Assembly: GCF_963921235.1 (NCBI RefSeq)
Contig: NC_086108.1
Location: 17,732,001 to 17,796,000 of the forward strand
Origin: Mobula hypostoma
Taxonomy: Eukaryota
DNA: 64,000 bases
Direction: 5' to 3'
Part shown: one piece after another, positions 5,640 to 56,185 of the stretch
Numbering within the stretch: the first letter of the stretch is position 1
Layout: each line of letters starts with the position of its first letter
The notes under the pieces: generated by a model
Seen by the model: only the letters and a program-made list of their open reading frames with translations
Told to the model about the DNA's origin: nothing
Databases searched by the model: none
Position numbers and translations under genes: made by a program

Positions 5640-5677
5640 CAGGCCTGATGAAGTGTCTTGGCCTGAAACGTCGACTG
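5640..5677 (+). ncRNA. Minimal hammerhead ribozyme motif in a Penelope pseudo-LTR (core intact, stems weakened)
   Basis: CTGATGA (5645-5651) ... GAAACGTC (5665-5672) followed by GACTG. Confidence 0.7.
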
Positions 5678-5775
5678 TACTCTTTTCCATAAGTGCTGCC
5701 TGGTCTGCTGAGTCTGTCCAGCATTTTGTGTGTGTTGTTTGGATTTCCAACATCTGCAGATTTTCTCTTGTTTGT

Positions 5776-19185: not shown

Positions 19186-19348
19186 ATGTGCTGTAAGGCT
19201 GAAAATACCTCCTCCCTGGTAATATGAATGTCCTCCAAAACATAAACACGAGGAATTCTGCAGATGCTGGAAATTCAAGCAACACACATCAAAGTTGCTG
19301 GTGAACGCAGCAGGCTAGGCAGCATCTCTAGGAAGAGGTACAGTCGCA

Positions 19349-19364
19349 TTAGGGTTAGGGTTAG
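19349..19364 (+). repeat. Short interstitial telomeric repeat TTAGGGTTAGGGTTAG
   Basis: Directly visible in the hairpin loop. Confidence 0.85.
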
Positions 19365-19398
19365 TCCTGACGAAGGGTCTCGGCCCGAAACGTCGACT
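19363..19398 (+). ncRNA. Minimal type I hammerhead ribozyme, intact core
   Basis: Stem I AGTC/GACT; CTGACGA(A); stem II GGGT-CTCG-GCCC; GAAACGTC with palindromic ACGT; predicted cleavage 3' of C19394. Confidence 0.85.
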
Positions 19399-20736
19399 GT
19401 ACCTCTTCCTAGAGATGCTGCCTGGCCTGCTGCGTTCACCAGCAACTTTGATGTGTGTTGTCCTCCAAAACATCTTCACTTGTGCCCCTTATGCTTTGAG
19501 TAACTTGCTTCTTAGTAAATGCTGAGGAGAAATATTCATTAAAAATCCCATCTAGTTCCTGTGGCTCAAGACATAGGCTGCCCTGCTGATCTCTAAAGGG
19601 ACCTACTCACTTTTTGTCCACACTTTCACTCTTAGTATAGCTATAAAAACTGTCAGGATTTTCCTTAATCTTACCTGCCAGATTCATCTCATACCCTGTC
19701 TTGGCCCTCTGATTTCCCTTGTAAGTGTATTCTTAAATCTTTTTACAGTCATCAAAGGATTTATTCAAGCCCAACCTCCTAAACCGATTCTATGCTGTCT
19801 CCTCTTTCTTGACTAGAGCCTCAATATCTCTTGTCAGTCAAAGTTCCTTAAACTTCTAGGTTTAACCTTCACCCTAACAGGAATGTGCTTCTCCTGGACA
19901 TTTGTTATCACACTGGTAAAAGCCTCCCACTTGCCATCTGTTCCTTTCCTTCCAAACAAGTTAACCCAATCGACCTCTGCTGCATCCTGTCTAATTCCTC
20001 CAAAATTGGACTTGCTGCTCTTTAGGACTCTAACCTTTGGGCCTGTCCTATCCTTTACCATCACTATCTTAAAACTAATAGAATTATGGTCACTAGAGCC
20101 AAAGTGCTTCTTGACTGCTACATCAATTACTTGCTCTGCCTTGTTTCCTACAAGGAGGTCCAGTACTGCATCCTCATGAGTTGGGCTCTCTATATATTGA
20201 CACATGAAACTTTCCTGGACACGTTTTACAGATTCTACCCCCTTCCAGGCCCTTAACACTCTTTGCAGCCCAGCTAATACCAGAGAAATTAAAATCTCCC
20301 CCAAAAACAATCCTATTATTCTTACAACTATGAATAATTTCTTTACACACCTGGTCCTCAACTTCCCACTGACTTTGAGAGGGGTCTATAATACAGCCTC
20401 AATTGAATAACCCTCTCCTTCTTGTTTCTGACATCTACCAACATGGCCTCACTAGATTATCCCCGAAGAACATCATCCCTAAGTAGTGTTATTTCGTATT
20501 CCCTTATCAAAGAAGCTACATTCATTTCCAGGTTACCTGTACCTCTGTGATACCTGTGAACATTGAGGATTGTCCTGCCATTCTGTCAGTGATGTTTCTG
20601 TAAGGCCTATAACATCCCGGACCTCAGAGCCATTCCTCAGAGTTCAACTACTTAAAATGCAGTTTAAGTGGATATTCCTTTCCCTGCCTTTACTGAGCTC
20701 CTGGCTATCCTGATTGCTAGACCTGCTGTTACTGGC

Positions 20737-20808: not shown

Positions 20809-22040
20809 ACTGATGTCTATTACAAACCCACAGACTCTCACAGCTACCTCGACTACACCTCATTCCACCCTGCTACTTGTCAAAATGCCATCCTCTTCTC
20901 TCAATTCCTCTGTCTCCACTGCATTTGCTCTCAGGATGAGGCTTTTCATTCTAGAATGAAGATGTTCTCCTTTTTCAAAGAAAGGGGCTTCCCTTCCTCC
21001 CCATCAATGCTGCCCTCAGCCACATCTCTTCTATTTCACACGCATCTGCTCTTACCCCATCTTCCCGCCACACTACCAGGGATAAGGTTCCTCTTGTCCT
21101 CACCTACTACTCCACAAGGCTCCTCGTGAGCACGCAATTCTCCGAAATTTCTGCCACCTCCAACAGAATCGCACCACCAAACATATCTTACCCCCCCCTC
21201 CCTGCCCACTTTCTGCTTTCCAAAGATATAGCTCACTACCGTGACCCCCTTGTCCATTCGTCCCTCCCCACTGATCTCCCTCCTCGCACTTATCCTTGCA
21301 AACGGAACAAGTGCTATATCTGCCCCTACACCTCCTCCCTCACTATCATTCAGGGCCCTAAACAGTCCTTCCAGGTGAGGTGACACTTCACCTGTGAGTC
21401 TGTTGGGGTCATTTACTGTGTTCAGTTCTCCTGGTGTGGCCTCCTGTGTATCGGTGAGACCCGACGTAGATTGGGAGACCATTTTGCGGAGCATCTATGC
21501 TCCATCTGCCAGAACAGGTGGGATCTCCCAGTGGCTGTCCATTTTAATTCCACTTCCCATTCCCATTAGGATATGTCCATCCATTACCTTCTCCACTGTC
21601 ATGATGAGGCCACACTTAGGTTGGAAGAACAACACCTTATATTCCATTTGGGTAGCCTCCAACCTGATGGCATGAACAACAATTTCTCAAACTTCTGGTA
21701 AAGTCCCCTGACCCCCCTTCACTATTTCAAGTCCCCTTCTCTCTCTCTCTGACCTTATCTCCTTGCCTACCCATTGCCTTCCTCTGGTGCTCCCCCATTT
21801 TTCTTTCTTCCATGGCCTTCTGTCTCTTTCACCAATCAACTTCCCAGCTCTTTACTTCATCCATCCCTCTCCAGGTTTTAACCTATCACCTGGTGTTTCT
21901 CTCTTCCCTCCCCCACCTTTTATATCTACTCCTCAGCTTTTTTTTCCCTCCAGTCCTGCCAAAGGGTTGCAAAACATTGACTGTACTTTTTTCCATAGAT
22001 GCTGCCTGGCCTGCTGATTTCCTCTAACATTTTGTGGGTG
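20809..22040 (+). mobile_element. Penelope-like element (RT C-terminus, GIY-YIG, pseudo-LTR), decayed
   Basis: YYKPTDSHSYLDY.S.HP..CQNAI..SQFL, PLVLTY, C.R.KC.ICP, IGETRRRLGDHFAEHL, LEEQHL; decayed hammerhead at 21951-21983. Confidence 0.9.
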
Positions 22041-31634: not shown

Positions 31635-31990
31635 ACAGTGATAGATTGCTTTACTGGGTACAATGAGGGATTACTACTGATTAAAGTGATGGATTGCACT
31701 TTTTGATATTAATTACAGTGACAGATTGTCTTATTGATTACAATGTGAGATCGTGCTACTGATTATAGCAAGTGTCATGCTACTGATTACAGTGAGAAAT
31801 CGCACCACTGAGTACAATGACAGATTGTGTTATGGATTACAATGAGGATTGCACAGTTCATTATGGTGACGACCCGCTACTGATTATAGTGAGGAATCAC
31901 GTTACTGATTACAGTGACAATCCGCTACTGATTTCAGTTAGGGATCATGTACTGATTACTATGACAGATTGCGGCACTGATTGCAGTGAT
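31635..31990. repeat. Degenerate minisatellite, 23-25-bp unit (approx. GATTACAGTGAGAGATTGCGCTACT), about 14 copies
   Basis: Recurrent ACTGATTACAGTGA-like phase every 23-25 nt. Confidence 0.85.
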
Positions 31991-42715: not shown

Positions 42716-45120
42716 CTCCAATTAAATGCTTTTCTAACTTGTCTGTTCCTATCTCTCTCCAATGCTATTGTAAAGGAGATAGAATTATAATCACTGTCTC
42801 CAAAATGCTCTCCCACTGAGAGATCTGATACCTGACCAGGTTCATTTCCCAATACCAAATCAAGTACAGCCTCTCCTCTTGTAGGCTTATCTATATATTG
42901 TATCAAGAAACCTTCCTGAACACACCTAACAAAGTCCACCTCATCTAAACCCCTTGCTTCAGGAAGATGCCAATCAATATTTGGGAAATTAAAATCTCCC
43001 ATCACGATAACTCTGTTATTAATACACCTTTCCAGGATCTGTTTCCCTATCTGCTCCTCGATATCCCTGTTACTATTGGGCGGCCTATAAAAAACTCCCA
43101 GTAAAGTTATTGACCCCTTCCTGTTCCTAACCTCCACCCACAGAGATTCCATAGACAATCCCTCCATGGTGTCCACCTTTTCTGCAGCCGTGACACTATC
43201 TCTGATCAACAGTGCCACGCCCCCACCTCTTTTGCCTCCCTCCCTGTCCTTTCTGAAACATCTAAAACCCGGCACTTGAAGTAACCATTCCTGTCCCTGA
43301 GCCATCCAAGTCTCTGTAATGGCATATCATATCACCAAGTACTGATCCACGCTCTAAGCTCATCCGCTTTGTTCACAACACTCCTTGAGTTAAGATATAC
43401 GCATCTCAGACCTTCAGTCTGAGCACGTACCTTCTCTTTCACCTGCCTATCCTCCCTCTCGCACTGTCTACAAGCTTTCTCTATTTGTGAGCCAATCTCC
43501 TCTTCCCCAGTCTCTTCAGTTCAGTTCCCACCCCCCAACAATTCTAGTTTAAACTCTTCTCAGCAGCCTTAGCAAACCTCCCCGCCAGGATATTGGTCCC
43601 CCTGGGATTCAAGTGCAACCCGTCCTTTTCGTACAGATCACACCTGCCCCAAAAGAGGTCCCAATGATCCAGAAATCTGAATCCCTGCCCCGTGCTCCAA
43701 TCCCTCCGCCATGCATTTATCCTCCACCTCATTCTATTCCTATTCTCTCTGTCGCGTTGCACAGGCAATAATCCCAAGATTACTACCTTTGCAGTCCTGC
43801 TTCTCAACATCCTTCCTAACTCCCTGTACTCTTTTTCAGGACCTCTTCCCTTTTCCTACCTATGCCATTGGTACCAATATGTACCACAACCTCTGGCTGT
43901 TCTCCCTCCCACTGCAGGATATCTTAGACGTGATCTGAAACTTCCCAGACCCTGGCACCTGGGAGGCAAACTACCATCGGAGTTTCTCTCCTTCGTCCAC
44001 AGAATTGCCTGTCTGACCCCTAAGTATAGAGTCCCCTATCACTACTGCCTTCCTCTTCCTTTCCCTACCCTTCTGAGCCACAGACTCTCTGCCAGAGGCA
44101 TGGCCACTGTTGCTTCCCCCAGGTAGGCTGTCCCCCCCCAACAGTACTCAAAGAGGAGTACTTATTGTCAAGGGGTACAGCCACAGGAGTACTCTCTAGT
44201 ACCTTCCCCCTCCTGACTGTGATCCACTTGTCTGTCTCCCATGGCCCCAGTGTGACCACCTGCCTATAACTCCTTTCTATCAACCTCCCTGCTCTCCCTG
44301 ACCAGGCGAAGGTCATCGAGCTGCATCTCCAGTTCCCTAACTCGGTCCCTTAGGAGCTGCAGCTCGACACACCGGGTGCAGATATGGCTGTCGGGGAGGC
44401 TGGGAGACTCCAGGACGTCCCACATCTGACACCGGGCACAGAAAACTGGCCTCACACAAATACTTCCTCCTTTCCGCACGTAACACCGGTAAACCTACCT
44501 CGCCTCGTCCCGTTACTGCCTAAGCCCATTGAGCCAAAGCCCTATCACTTGCTGCCTCTCACACTGCTGCCCACTCCGCTGCCCACTCCGAACGCTGTCT
44601 ACTGTGTACGGTGGTCTTTTTAAACCTTTCATGCTCTACTGGCTGACGTCACATGCCTGCGCAGTCTGGCCTCTCTTTTACCCCGAGTGGTAAAAACTGC
44701 CTTGGCTCCGAAAATCAGCTGTTCACTCGCAGCCTTCTTGCTCCGAATCCAATTTTTCTCTCAGCCTCAATCTTCTTCCTTCTCACCGTACCCCTGACCA
44801 ATTAAGAATCTATCAATTTCTGCCTTTAGACTTGGCCTCCACAGCCATTGGTGGCAAAGAATTCCACAGATTTACCACTCTCTGGCTAAAGAAATTCCTC
44901 TTTATCGCTGTTCTAAAAGGACACCCCTTTTTTTCTGAGGCTGTGTCCTCTGGTCTTTGACTCTCCAATCATAGGAAACATCCTCCTCCACATTCACTCT
45001 ATCAAGCCCTTTCACCATTTGATAGACTTCAATGGAGTCTCCCTCCATTCTTCTGAATTCCAGTGAATAAAGGCCCAGAGCCATCAAATGCTCTTTATAT
45101 GACAAGCCATTCAATCATGG

Positions 45121-45193
45121 CAACACACATCAAAGTTGCTGGTGAACGCAGCAGACCAGGCTGCATCTCTAGGAAGAGGTACAGTCGAGTTTC
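45121..45193 (-). mobile_element. Penelope pseudo-LTR fragment (family of 19280-19346)
   Basis: Near-identical to the left arm of the 19244 hairpin; breaks inside the hammerhead core. Confidence 0.8.
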
Positions 45194-45593: not shown

Positions 45594-45747
45594 GATTCCA
45601 TCATCCGAATCACTGATGAATCGGTCCTAACACAGACCCGTGTAGAACACCACTAGTCACAAAATACTCTGCAGATGCTGGGGTCAAAGCAACACTCACA
45701 ACATGCTGGAGGAACTCAGCAGGTCGGGCAGCATCCGTGGAAATGAT

Positions 45748-45785
45748 AATTCAATGTTTCGGGCCAGAACCCTTCGTCAGTACTG
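45748..45785 (-). ncRNA. Hammerhead motif (Penelope), partly decayed
   Basis: Reverse complement CAGTA-CTGACGA-AGGGTTCTGGCCC-GAAACATT-GAA. Confidence 0.6.
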
Positions 45786-47610: not shown

Positions 47611-47650
47611 TCAGTCCTGTGGAAGGGTTCCAGCCCGAAACGTTGACTGA
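47611..47650 (+). ncRNA. Hammerhead motif (Penelope); core mutated, stems intact
   Basis: TCAGTC-CTGTGGA-AGGGTTCCAGCCC-GAAACGTT-GACTGA; 6-bp stem I. Confidence 0.6.
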
Positions 47651-48451
47651 TCATTTCCACGGATGCTGCCAGACCTGTTGAGTTCCTCCAGCATATTGTG
47701 AGAACACCACTAGTCACCAGCAGCCAGCCAGCAAAGACTCCCTTTATCCCCATTCTTTTCCTCTTGCCAATCAGCCAATGTTTTATGCATGCTGGAATCT
47801 TTCCTGTAGTACCATGGTCTCGTAGCTTGTTAAGCAGCCTCATACGTGGCACCTTGTCAAAGGCCTTCTGAAAATCCAAGTGCACAACATCAACTGATTC
47901 TCCTTTGGCTATCCTACTTTTTATTTTTTCAAAGAATTCCAACAGATTTGTCAGGCAAGATTTTCCCTTGAAGAAACCATGTTGACTATGGTTATTTTAT
48001 CATGTGACTCCAAGTACTCTGAGATCTCAACCTTAAAAATTGACTTCAACATCTTCCCAACCTGTGTGGTCAGGCTAACTGGCGTATAATTTCCTTTCTT
48101 CTGCTTTTCTCCCTTCTTGAAGAGTGGAATGACATTTGCAATTTTCCAGTCTTCTAGAACCATTCCAGAATCTAGTGATTCTTGAAAGATCATTACTAAT
48201 GTCTCCACAATCTCTTCAGCCACCTTTTTCAGAACTTTGGTGTGTACACCATCTGGTCCAGGTGACTTACCTACCTTCAGACCTTTCAGTTCCCCAAGAA
48301 CATTCTCTCTAGTTATGGTAACTTCACACACTTCATTACCCCTGACACCTGACTTCTACCATACTGCTAATGTCTTCCACAGTGAAGTGAAGACTGATGC
48401 AAAATATTTATTCAGTTCATCTGCTATTTCATTGTCCCCCATTATCAGGTT

Positions 48452-53900: not shown

Positions 53901-55037
53901 ACTGCACAACCCATCTTCCCTACTCTAAACAACACTAAGAGAATCTCAATAACTATGTCAGAATGAGCTTTTGATTTATTCCCTTTTATAGTCTCTAAGG
54001 CAACAGCAGAATCTGAACAGATGATAATTCTACGTGGTCGAGAGTCTTCTATCTACCATAAGACCCAGAGGATTGCTAATAATTCTGTTGCAAAGACAGA
54101 AACACCATCTGAAACCCGGTGACCAATTCTAACTCCAAGTTGAGACACATACATCCCAAATCCTGCCCTACTGCTCTCTGGGTCCACTGAGCCATCAGTA
54201 AAAATCTTCAGACAAGATCCCCATTTATTATTTAAATATTCATTTGTGATCAACGCTGATGAAATTGCACTACTTCCTTGAAGCTGAAAAAGGAGGAAAA
54301 GGTCTACTTCTGGTTCTGGAAAGAGCCAAAAAGGGATGGGTGGCAAGCAACTTTGGTCATCTATGTCTTCCTCAGTCAGTTTCAATTTCACAGCCCAGTT
54401 ATTAACCAAATATAAAAATGGGTCTCTTTTAATTTTACTTTGACTTCCCCTGCAAAAGACACTTTGGTGGACAGCTGTGATTGACTCCATCTAGTTTTGC
54501 CCAATACTGCAGGCCCAACTGAATTCGTCTTAAATGCAGAGGCACTTCTCCCATCTCCATACATAATGCCGGGACTGATGTTGTTCTAAATCTCCACAAC
54601 AGAGTCTAAGTGCTTTGGACTGCACAGTGTCTAGTTTTCCAAGCACTGCCGTAGCAGTGGAACCATAAGCAATACAACCATAATCTATAACTGATCTAAT
54701 CATAGCTAGATATATTAAGTACATAGTTTCCCGCCCTGCTCCCCAGTCGCATCCAGCAATACTTCTCATAACATTTAAAACTTTCTCACACTTTCCAATT
54801 GTTTTATCTATATGAACCCTCCAAGTAAGTCTTTCATCAAACCAGACACCTAAAAACTTGAATACCTTGACTTTTTCTAGTGGAGAATCATATAGACACA
54901 ATTCACAATCAGGAATCTTTCTTCTAAAGCCAAAAATCATATATTTGGACTTAGAAGCAGAAACCCTGAAACCCCATTTATTAGCCCAGTTTTCAACTGA
55001 TCTTAAAGCCTTTTGTACCTGTCTTAATATATACTTG

Positions 55038-56185
55038 TCTTGGCGCTCACGGCCCGGTGTCGACTCGATCTCAGCCGGGTGTCTCGGCGCTCACGGCCCG
55101 GTATCTCTGACGGCAGGTTGTTCAACCTTAGGCGCCTGCAGGCAGTTAGAAAGGTGCAAGAGACTGTCATCAGAGACTTCTTGTTTGCTGATGACTGCGC
55201 ACTCAACGCCAGCACAGAGCAGGAGATGCAGCGTGAGATGGACTGCTTCTCACAAGCCTGCGACAACTTCGGTCTCACTATCAGCACCAAAAAGTCCGAA
55301 GTTATGTACCAGCCTGCCCCAGGAAAGCCATACCAGGAGCCGCGCATCACGGTGAAGGGCCAGAACCTCCAGGCAGTTGACAACTTCACCTACCTGGGCA
55401 GCATACTCTCTCGCACAGTGAACATAGACGCTAAGGTCAACAACAGGATTGCCAAAGCCAGCGCCGCCTTTGGGAGACTCTGTGAGAACGTCTGGGAGCA
55501 GAGAGGACTCAGCCTTACCACCAAGCTGAAGGTCTACTGTGCAACGGTCCTTACCACCCTCCTTTACGCCAGCAAGACCTGGACTGTCTACAGCAGACAT
55601 GCCAAACAGCTCAACCACTTTCACCTGAGCTGTCTCCGCAGACTCCTCCACATCAGGTGGCAGGACAAAGTCCCCGACACGGAAATCCTGGAACGAGCTG
55701 TGCTCCGCAGCGTCTACACCCTCCTGCTGAAAGCCCAAGCCAGGTGGGCTGGACATGTGGTCAGAATGCCAGACAGCCGATTGCCTAAGCAGCTGCTGTA
55801 CGGAGAACTGTGTCAGGGCAAGCGCTCAGTCGGGGGGCAGAAGAAACGTTACAAAGTCTGCCTTAAAGCGTCCCTCAAAGGCCTGGGTGTCGACATCAAC
55901 ACGTGGGAGATGCTTGCCCTCGACCGTCCAGCTTGGCGCAGCAAGATCACCACAGGAACCCGTGCAGCTGAAGTCAGGCGCATCATTGAGGCGCAACGAA
56001 AGCGTGCTGTGCACAAGGCCCGAGCAGCATCCACTGCCATGACAGCACCCACCCACTTGTGTCCCACATGTGGGCGAGCCTTCAGGGCCCGGATTGGCCT
56101 CATCAGTGACCTCCGGACCCACAGCCACCAATCTCCCATTTGACTTTGAAGCCATGGTCATCTTCGACTACAAAGGACGAACAAC
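55038..56185 (+). mobile_element. Young RTE LINE, 5'-truncated, inserted antisense into the Nimb RT
   Basis: Perfect 12-bp TSD AATATATACTTG; (ACA)n tail. Confidence 0.95.
55040..56143 (+). pseudogene. RTE ORF C-terminal half (RT core to C2H2-like finger), open for 367 aa
   Basis: DGRLFNLRRL, LFADDCAL, FTYLGS, RWAGHVVRM, CPTCGRAF motifs. Confidence 0.9.

Follow-up and report, generated by a model that had tools for sequence, protein, structure and literature searches.

A telomeric filler in a Penelope-like hairpin insertion of Mobula hypostoma, probably added by host telomerase

How does a run of telomeric repeats come to lie in the middle of a retroelement insertion, beside the cleavage site of a ribozyme? 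The window, i.e., the whole 64,000-nucleotide stretch of Mobula hypostoma DNA analysed here (on G000:C50), holds a 217-bp insert (19244-19460) in which two inverted arms of a Penelope-like element (PLE) meet across such a run, next to the predicted cut of a hammerhead. The first-pass annotation had read the junction as the cDNA of a ribozyme-cleaved RNA of about 100 nt, extended either by telomerase or by the PLE reverse transcriptase (RT) after a switch to the telomerase RNA (TERC). The reading that we prefer, and hold to be reasonably likely as a whole, is a two-armed Penelope-like insertion in which telomerase extended one cDNA 3' end, probably during integration, and the two cDNAs were joined via a 5-nt overlap.

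Architecture of the insert and its family

Coordinates and letters of the insert are as first described, including its two inverted arms and the 13-nt direct repeat that flanks it (15 nt with the TG common to the element end; Table 1). The arms (19280-19346 and 19394-19460) are complementary at 99% over 67 nt. The TCG that closes the antisense arm straddles 19345^19346, the equivalent of the hammerhead cleavage site on that arm, which thus stops one base beyond the cleavage point, in agreement with the original claim of an end within 1 nt. The polarity assigned to the tailed arm would follow from target-primed reverse transcription.

Table 1. Features of the insert and its flanks, in window positions
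Feature	Position	Strand	Remark
Target-site duplication, left copy	19231..19243	+	15 nt counting the shared TG at 19229-30
Tailed pseudo-LTR arm of the Penelope element	19244..19346	-	+ strand is the putative first-strand cDNA, with the left target end as primer
36-nt tail, left arm only	19244..19279	-	paired arms begin at 19280
TCG common to the element and to a copy of the C-form TERC flank	19344..19346	+	likely primer-template pairing
CA	19347..19348	+	complements the two TERC bases directly 3' of the template
Telomeric repeats, non-element	19349..19359	+	length implies one translocation if telomerase-made
GTTAG, common to the telomeric register and to the element upstream of stem I	19360..19364	+	
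Sense arm without tail	19360..19460	+	- strand is the putative second cDNA, with the right target end as primer
Minimal type I hammerhead motif	19362..19399	+	core pattern; predicted cut 19394^19395
Target-site duplication, right copy	19461..19473	+	

Directly after the CA stands the telomeric repeat TTAGGGTTAGGGTTAG (19349-64, 16 nt), whose closing GTTAG belongs to the element: The same letters lie upstream of stem I in a longer family copy (L119), in two listed hairpin junctions and in loose contig ends at 19360. The overlap between the repeats and the sense arm therefore exists, but it comprises these five nucleotides and not the AG first proposed, and GTTAG is the likely annealing point between both cDNA ends. 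It follows that only 13 nt (19347-59) are non-element filler, and that the GGTTAG end says nothing about a telomerase template boundary, so that the argument built on a stop at GGTTAG is void. Chance is an unlikely source of the filler: Across the 69,396 arm ends, a given 13-mer with 12 registers allowed is expected about 0.012 times, and a shorter form of the junction is present at an unrelated site (L032).

The hammerhead was called from its core pattern, which is that of a complete minimal core and suggests a putative ribozyme. An Rfam scan of the window returned no hammerhead at the gathering score or at E<=10; the matches at E<=10 were miRNA look-alikes driven by the hairpin shape and were rejected. 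As a single molecule, the motif does not fold better than its shuffles (z about -1), which is expected because minimal hammerheads are reported to be active as dimers. Further pseudo-LTR fragments of the same or older subfamilies lie elsewhere in the window (45120-45193, 5641-5737, 45704-45784, 47613-47693 and 21972-22016), with hammerhead-like cores retained at 5645 and 45780 (- strand). The window also contains degenerate tandem arrays at 31707-31966 (23-25/48-nt units) and 55036-55107 (22-nt units).

The family is very common and dispersed (69,396 exact matches to an 18-nt arm anchor), and the hairpin form is ordinary within it, since 1,616 junctions satisfy one strict hairpin pattern. Among the 27 hairpins scored out of 30 loci, 15 had a target duplication of 13-14 nt and none had a second tail, in a set retrieved with a query that was itself one-tailed. 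The window's own insert is likewise one-tailed, and in it a 30-40-nt tail at one end is combined with an inverted, 5'-truncated partner. The RNA 3' ends of the two arms point to the target and their 5' ends face each other at the centre, a layout that would fit reverse transcription primed on either target strand, with one start site at each border of the tail. In vitro, an anole Poseidon element has both strands cut and extended, two RT start sites delimit the tail, and unprocessed RNA is the main substrate (PMC11167929, in the parts of that study used here).

As to coding capacity, the end of an open reading frame (ORF) upstream of the pseudo-LTR in L119 resembles GIY-YIG domains (PF01541, E 0.0023, 18.6 bits, below the cut-off of 22.6), and its position and YIG motif are compatible with a C-terminal GIY-YIG endonuclease. 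L211 has an RT-like, YIDD-type stretch; a Pfam search of two family RT fragments gave no match. TTAGGG was absent from the long copies compared and is thus not family sequence upstream of the hammerhead; its presence there is what the first-pass annotation had named as fatal to its case. Two further hairpins, L004 and L027 (G000:C68:55194689 and C68:55855328), have a common junction filler and right flank but different left flanks, which we read as duplication or conversion after insertion.

Host telomerase RNA and the source of the filler

TERC has one match in the host genome (RF00024, 186.9 bits) and is of the vertebrate type; our literature search turned up no usable TERC sequence from a ray or a shark. 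Its template is directly followed by UG, and the CA that precedes the telomeric repeats in the window is the copy of these two bases. A comparison of both filler flanks with the host TERC, suggested at the outset, thus bears out the CA flank; the AG flank is element sequence.

The CA start recurs at interstitial telomeric tracts. A search for tracts that follow two non-G bases and measure 16 nt or more returned 410, 100 of which were listed, and we examined the 38 that are separate interstitial tracts on C1, C2 and C5 starting at TTAGGG after two non-G bases (subtelomeric rows and an array at 13.8 Mb on C5 were left out). In 22 of the 38, the tract starts with CA, against 12% expected from the composition of the window (p 2e-11); G stands before CA in 19 of these 22 (p 5e-11), and C before that G in 11 of the 19. 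The tracts end in the register GGTTAG in 15 of 38 cases, a figure that we do not apply to the window, whose end is element sequence.

From the assembled TERC one would expect A before CA, and not G. Two interstitial 21-nt TERC fragments have C, which gives G, at the third base after the template and are otherwise identical to the gene, and the telomere arrays carry both versions of the flank unit (TCGCA and TCACA). On C2, all four TCGCA units lie inward of all five TCACA units, and the exact-form flank units are of the A type only on C9 (13) and of the G type only on C5 (2). The fragments and the telomere units together point to a second, probably older form of TERC in which this third base is C (the C-form); no whole C-form gene was found in the genome. 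The two fragments are L328 (G000:C63:63880414-63880430), which lies immediately outside the target duplication that flanks a hairpin from the same PLE family, and L329 (G000:C81:26783809-26783825), which has telomeric repeats in both orientations.

Window positions 19344-64 match, at 21 of 21 nt, the product predicted from the C-form TERC, the first three letters being the element's as well. Only 2-5 nt of TERC flank are present in the window, and no long TERC fragment lies beside the repeats. Given the match to the TERC flank, the CA signature of the interstitial tracts and the full match to the C-form product, we regard it as very probable that host telomerase made the filler by adding the G-rich strand to a cDNA 3' end, and on this point the first-pass annotation appears to have been right.

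Targeted exact-pattern searches, sorted by eye, recovered 11 telomerase-type fillers behind a cDNA arm (or 12, depending on the choice of weak cases): those of the window, L032, L048, L094, L161, L310, L311, L137, L147, L035 (in an older subfamily) and one of the weaker L165 and L038. The ambiguous L033 and L173 were excluded, and L169-171 were treated as a single event in three copies. Exact patterns give minimum counts, but even so such events are rare in comparison with some 69,000 arms. Many candidates were discarded: From the 13 loci of one targeted search we dropped three that were non-element, three of target-duplication sequence and two of decayed element; from the 28 matches of another, 17 that were decayed element stem (by eye) and eight of flank sequence; and most matches of two further pattern searches were flank, duplication or decay.

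Among the fillers retained, L032 is the junction of the window minus one repeat, in unrelated flanks; L094 is a three-repeat version at the 5' edge of the hammerhead; and the filler of L161 lies at the element's second TCG site. At L048/L121 (G000:C70:30998 towards the contig start, on a contig of 311 kb), a tailed arm that stops 1 nt before the cleavage point, with no TCG match, runs straight into about 380-400 telomeric units, possibly a new telomere built on a PLE end. In single, non-hairpin copies (L169, L183, L313 and L323), this filler is found at the 3' end on the target side. Among the 38 unselected interstitial tracts, one lies on a PLE junction, against 0.008 expected, so that the enrichment at junctions consists of one site among 38 plus the targeted searches.

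Timing of the filler and the part of the ribozyme

That the filler was formed at integration seems to us fairly likely. The main rival holds that the hairpin was already integrated and then broke at its centre, where telomerase added the filler. Inverted repeats are prone to breakage, most of the 38 tracts lie away from PLE junctions, and at L098 (G000:C2:245769103) a telomerase-type filler on the non-cDNA strand interrupts a sense PLE copy midway, which means that such inserts also arise after integration. Against a later break, the sense arm of the window begins at the family's common 5' start and so looks untrimmed, and fillers also occur at the 5' junctions of single copies in which there is no hairpin. 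We therefore think a later break unlikely, if still the strongest competitor of an origin during integration. Contigs of a related organism enter the insert from both flanks, 29 and 24 letters deep, where 31 letters were set as the bar for bridging, and this organism appears to share the insert; no empty or filler-free orthologous site was among the joints listed for it (775 more were unlisted, the repeat swamping the tables).

The next explanation is the full model first proposed, in which the hammerhead cuts the RNA, the RT runs off at the cut and telomerase extends the resulting end. If this process were common, arms should gather at the cut; they do not. Of 100 unselected arms, the first on C1, one ended within 2 nt of the cut, four were short and 95 ran at least 3 nt past it, from which it follows that the family is copied from uncleaved RNA. 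Short arms pile up 22-37 nt beyond the cut, near the 5' edge of the motif. Thirteen of the first 100 hairpin junctions listed end at the cut (a hand count that includes three identical strings), and an even spread over the range admitted by the hairpin pattern would predict about 16%. Across the family, then, cDNA ends do not cluster at the cleavage site. Reports from the in vitro system run in the same direction: Cleavage was found to be unnecessary there, and no RNA reads were seen to end at the site (PMC11167929, in the parts used here).

Among the telomerase-type fillers, three of 11 are at the cleavage site and eight of 11 lie about 14-37 nt beyond it. The three (those of the window, L032 and L048 on C70) each fall within 2 nt of the cut, a proportion that differs from that of the short arms (1 of 41; p 0.026) and not from that of the listed hairpin junctions (13 of 100; p 0.20); the filler searches were anchored near the cut, which favours such cases. 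Two of the three could be explained by pairing of TCG with TERC, and the second TCG site of the element was used as well (L161); the arm on C70 has no TCG match and, with the other two, is what speaks for a role of the cut. With the C-form TERC, moreover, the G at 19346 may derive from either the element or telomerase, and were it telomerase-made, the cDNA would have ended exactly at the cut; because of these two possible sources, the window alone is not decisive on the ribozyme. A small contribution of the ribozyme is possible, whereas a cDNA end defined by it is improbable here, and we give the complete cleavage-based model equally little credit. A template of ribozyme-cleaved RNA of about 100 nt is not supported, with one in 100 unselected arms at the site.

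Still less probable is that the PLE RT itself switched to TERC, to TERRA or to telomeric DNA and copied the filler. PLE RTs are related to telomerase (PMC8557442, in the sections used), and the telomere arrays of this genome offer TERC-flank units as possible templates. Yet CA precedes just 53 of the 2,548 units in the telomere arrays examined as against 22 of 38 tract starts, a poor fit to telomeric DNA or TERRA as the source. Two to three repeats would require translocation. Telomeres and sites without any PLE show the signature as well, which makes the switch, offered as an option in the first reading, unneeded. Hardly credible at all is a telomere look-alike produced by local templated insertion or by decay of the element's GTTAG, AGGGT and CGTCAGG motifs. 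In its favour, local fillers are visible at L004, L027 and L038, decay gives CATTAGG in many older copies and L033 is ambiguous; against it, the arms of the window are 99% alike, several switches would be needed, and the 21-nt match is to an independent C-form TERC sequence and is repeated at L032 and L094.

Course of the proposed event and relation to known systems

Extension of a cDNA end by telomerase at integration would involve a set of enzymes, an order and a timing that could account for the observed sequence matches, recurrence and breakpoint spread. The element endonuclease would nick the target with a stagger of 13 nt, and both 3' ends would prime reverse transcription on uncleaved RNA, one cDNA beginning at the start of the tail and the other at the inner start. 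The left arm ends in TCG, a match to the next three bases that follow the CA flank in the C-form TERC. Telomerase might pair at this TCG, copy CA and the template, translocate once, and stop, or be trimmed, at GGTTAG; the extended end would then anneal to the other cDNA end through GTTAG, and host repair would seal the gap. The event would be an occasional act of host repair, with no programmed step of the element and no ribozyme cut required. A tentative generalization, which may well prove wrong, is that telomerase in the germline of this vertebrate competes for 3' ends left open when Penelope elements integrate, mostly leaving a few TERC-stamped repeats, sometimes a whole telomere (as on C70), and perhaps preferring ribozyme-cut cDNAs.

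Interstitial telomeric repeats preceded by copied TERC flank are already known. Bases of the TERC 3' flank precede the repeats at eight of 14 mouse loci (Nergadze 2007, PMC2246262), and transposons were found not to be enriched around TERC-ITS loci (Sola 2021, PMC8537989). Our locus resembles the short ITS and TERC-ITS of these two sources in having an internal TTAGGG tract after a copy of the template's 3' flank, with a short match to the broken end. It differs from the TERC-ITS described there in that the primer was apparently a retrotransposon cDNA end, or a target end at the integration gap, instead of a plain break, and in that just 2-5 flank bases were copied.

Inverted one-tailed PLE copies are known as well. 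The insert shares with endonuclease-bearing (EN+) Penelope/Poseidon elements (Craig 2021, PMC8557442; Frangieh 2024, PMC11167929; both as far as used here) the pseudo-LTR with hammerhead, the inverted 5'-truncated partner, the 30-40-nt tail on one end only and, presumably, the priming of both strands, and departs from those descriptions in the probably telomerase-made filler at the inversion junction. With the minimal PLE hammerheads (Cervera and de la Pena 2014, PMC4209133, in part) it has in common a type I core, a near-absent helix III and a palindromic loop, but the cDNA ends of the present family do not gather at the cut. PLE, hammerhead and telomeric repeats are also neighbours in the telomere-associated EN- elements Athena and Coprina (PMC8557442, same sections), which have no endonuclease, carry the repeats as element sequence and use them to direct priming to chromosome ends; the present family, in contrast, is dispersed, has an endonuclease-like ORF end, and carries the repeats as a rare junction filler. 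What sets the insert apart is the likely use of a retrotransposon cDNA end as primer. Our literature search, mostly of open-access papers and their main texts, found no earlier description of a filler made by telomerase where a PLE or another retrotransposon joins its surroundings; the supplements of PMC8537989 may list relevant shark loci.

If correct, the host-specific fingerprint of the filler provides sequence-level evidence that the integration ends of a retrotransposon are open to telomerase in a vertebrate germline, and it offers a specific way in which interstitial telomeric repeats come about. The effect is rare per insertion, and its relevance is thus to mechanism and not to the bulk of the genome. 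For the PLE hammerhead, the same data amount to an in vivo probe of its role across a family of very many copies, and the outcome is negative: Integrated cDNAs come from uncleaved RNA, in agreement with the in vitro study (PMC11167929, parts used). The change from C to U in TERC, visible in fillers and telomeres, would serve as an internal marker of event age, and, should telomerase indeed compete for PLE ends, this one-base change could become a clock for insertions, healed breaks and telomere turnover.

Several observations concern telomeric sequence elsewhere in this genome. At L109 (G000:C5:108413746), two telomeric tracts stand tail to tail and the C-form TERC flank opens each of them, which would fit extension of both ends of a break, and L099 (G000:C5:13831796-13832139) is an expanded, degenerate telomere-like array within another repeat, with many CA-prefixed units. 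Variant units templated by TERC occur in the natural telomere arrays of G000 at C2:6200-12000, C5:940-1900, C9:5500-14000 and C70:28300-31000 (L066, L070, L117, L118, L120 and L121); besides the 3'-flank CA counted above, up to nine flank bases are copied, the C2 array has five read-throughs beyond the 5' template boundary, and one unit on C9 matches the 5' end of TERC. This suggests that telomerase is loosely bounded at the template. Some distal sequence in the array contigs resembles base-calling error, and our search of the main texts of mostly open-access papers found no report of boundary read-through in natural telomeres. Finally, a second, mostly subtelomeric GIY-YIG element (Pfam E 7e-6, above the cut-off) is present at L117:8269-9117, L119, L054, L059 and L091; it starts directly after GGTTAGG in all seven places found among the loci retrieved, and may be a telomere-repeat-primed, endonuclease-bearing PLE in a vertebrate.
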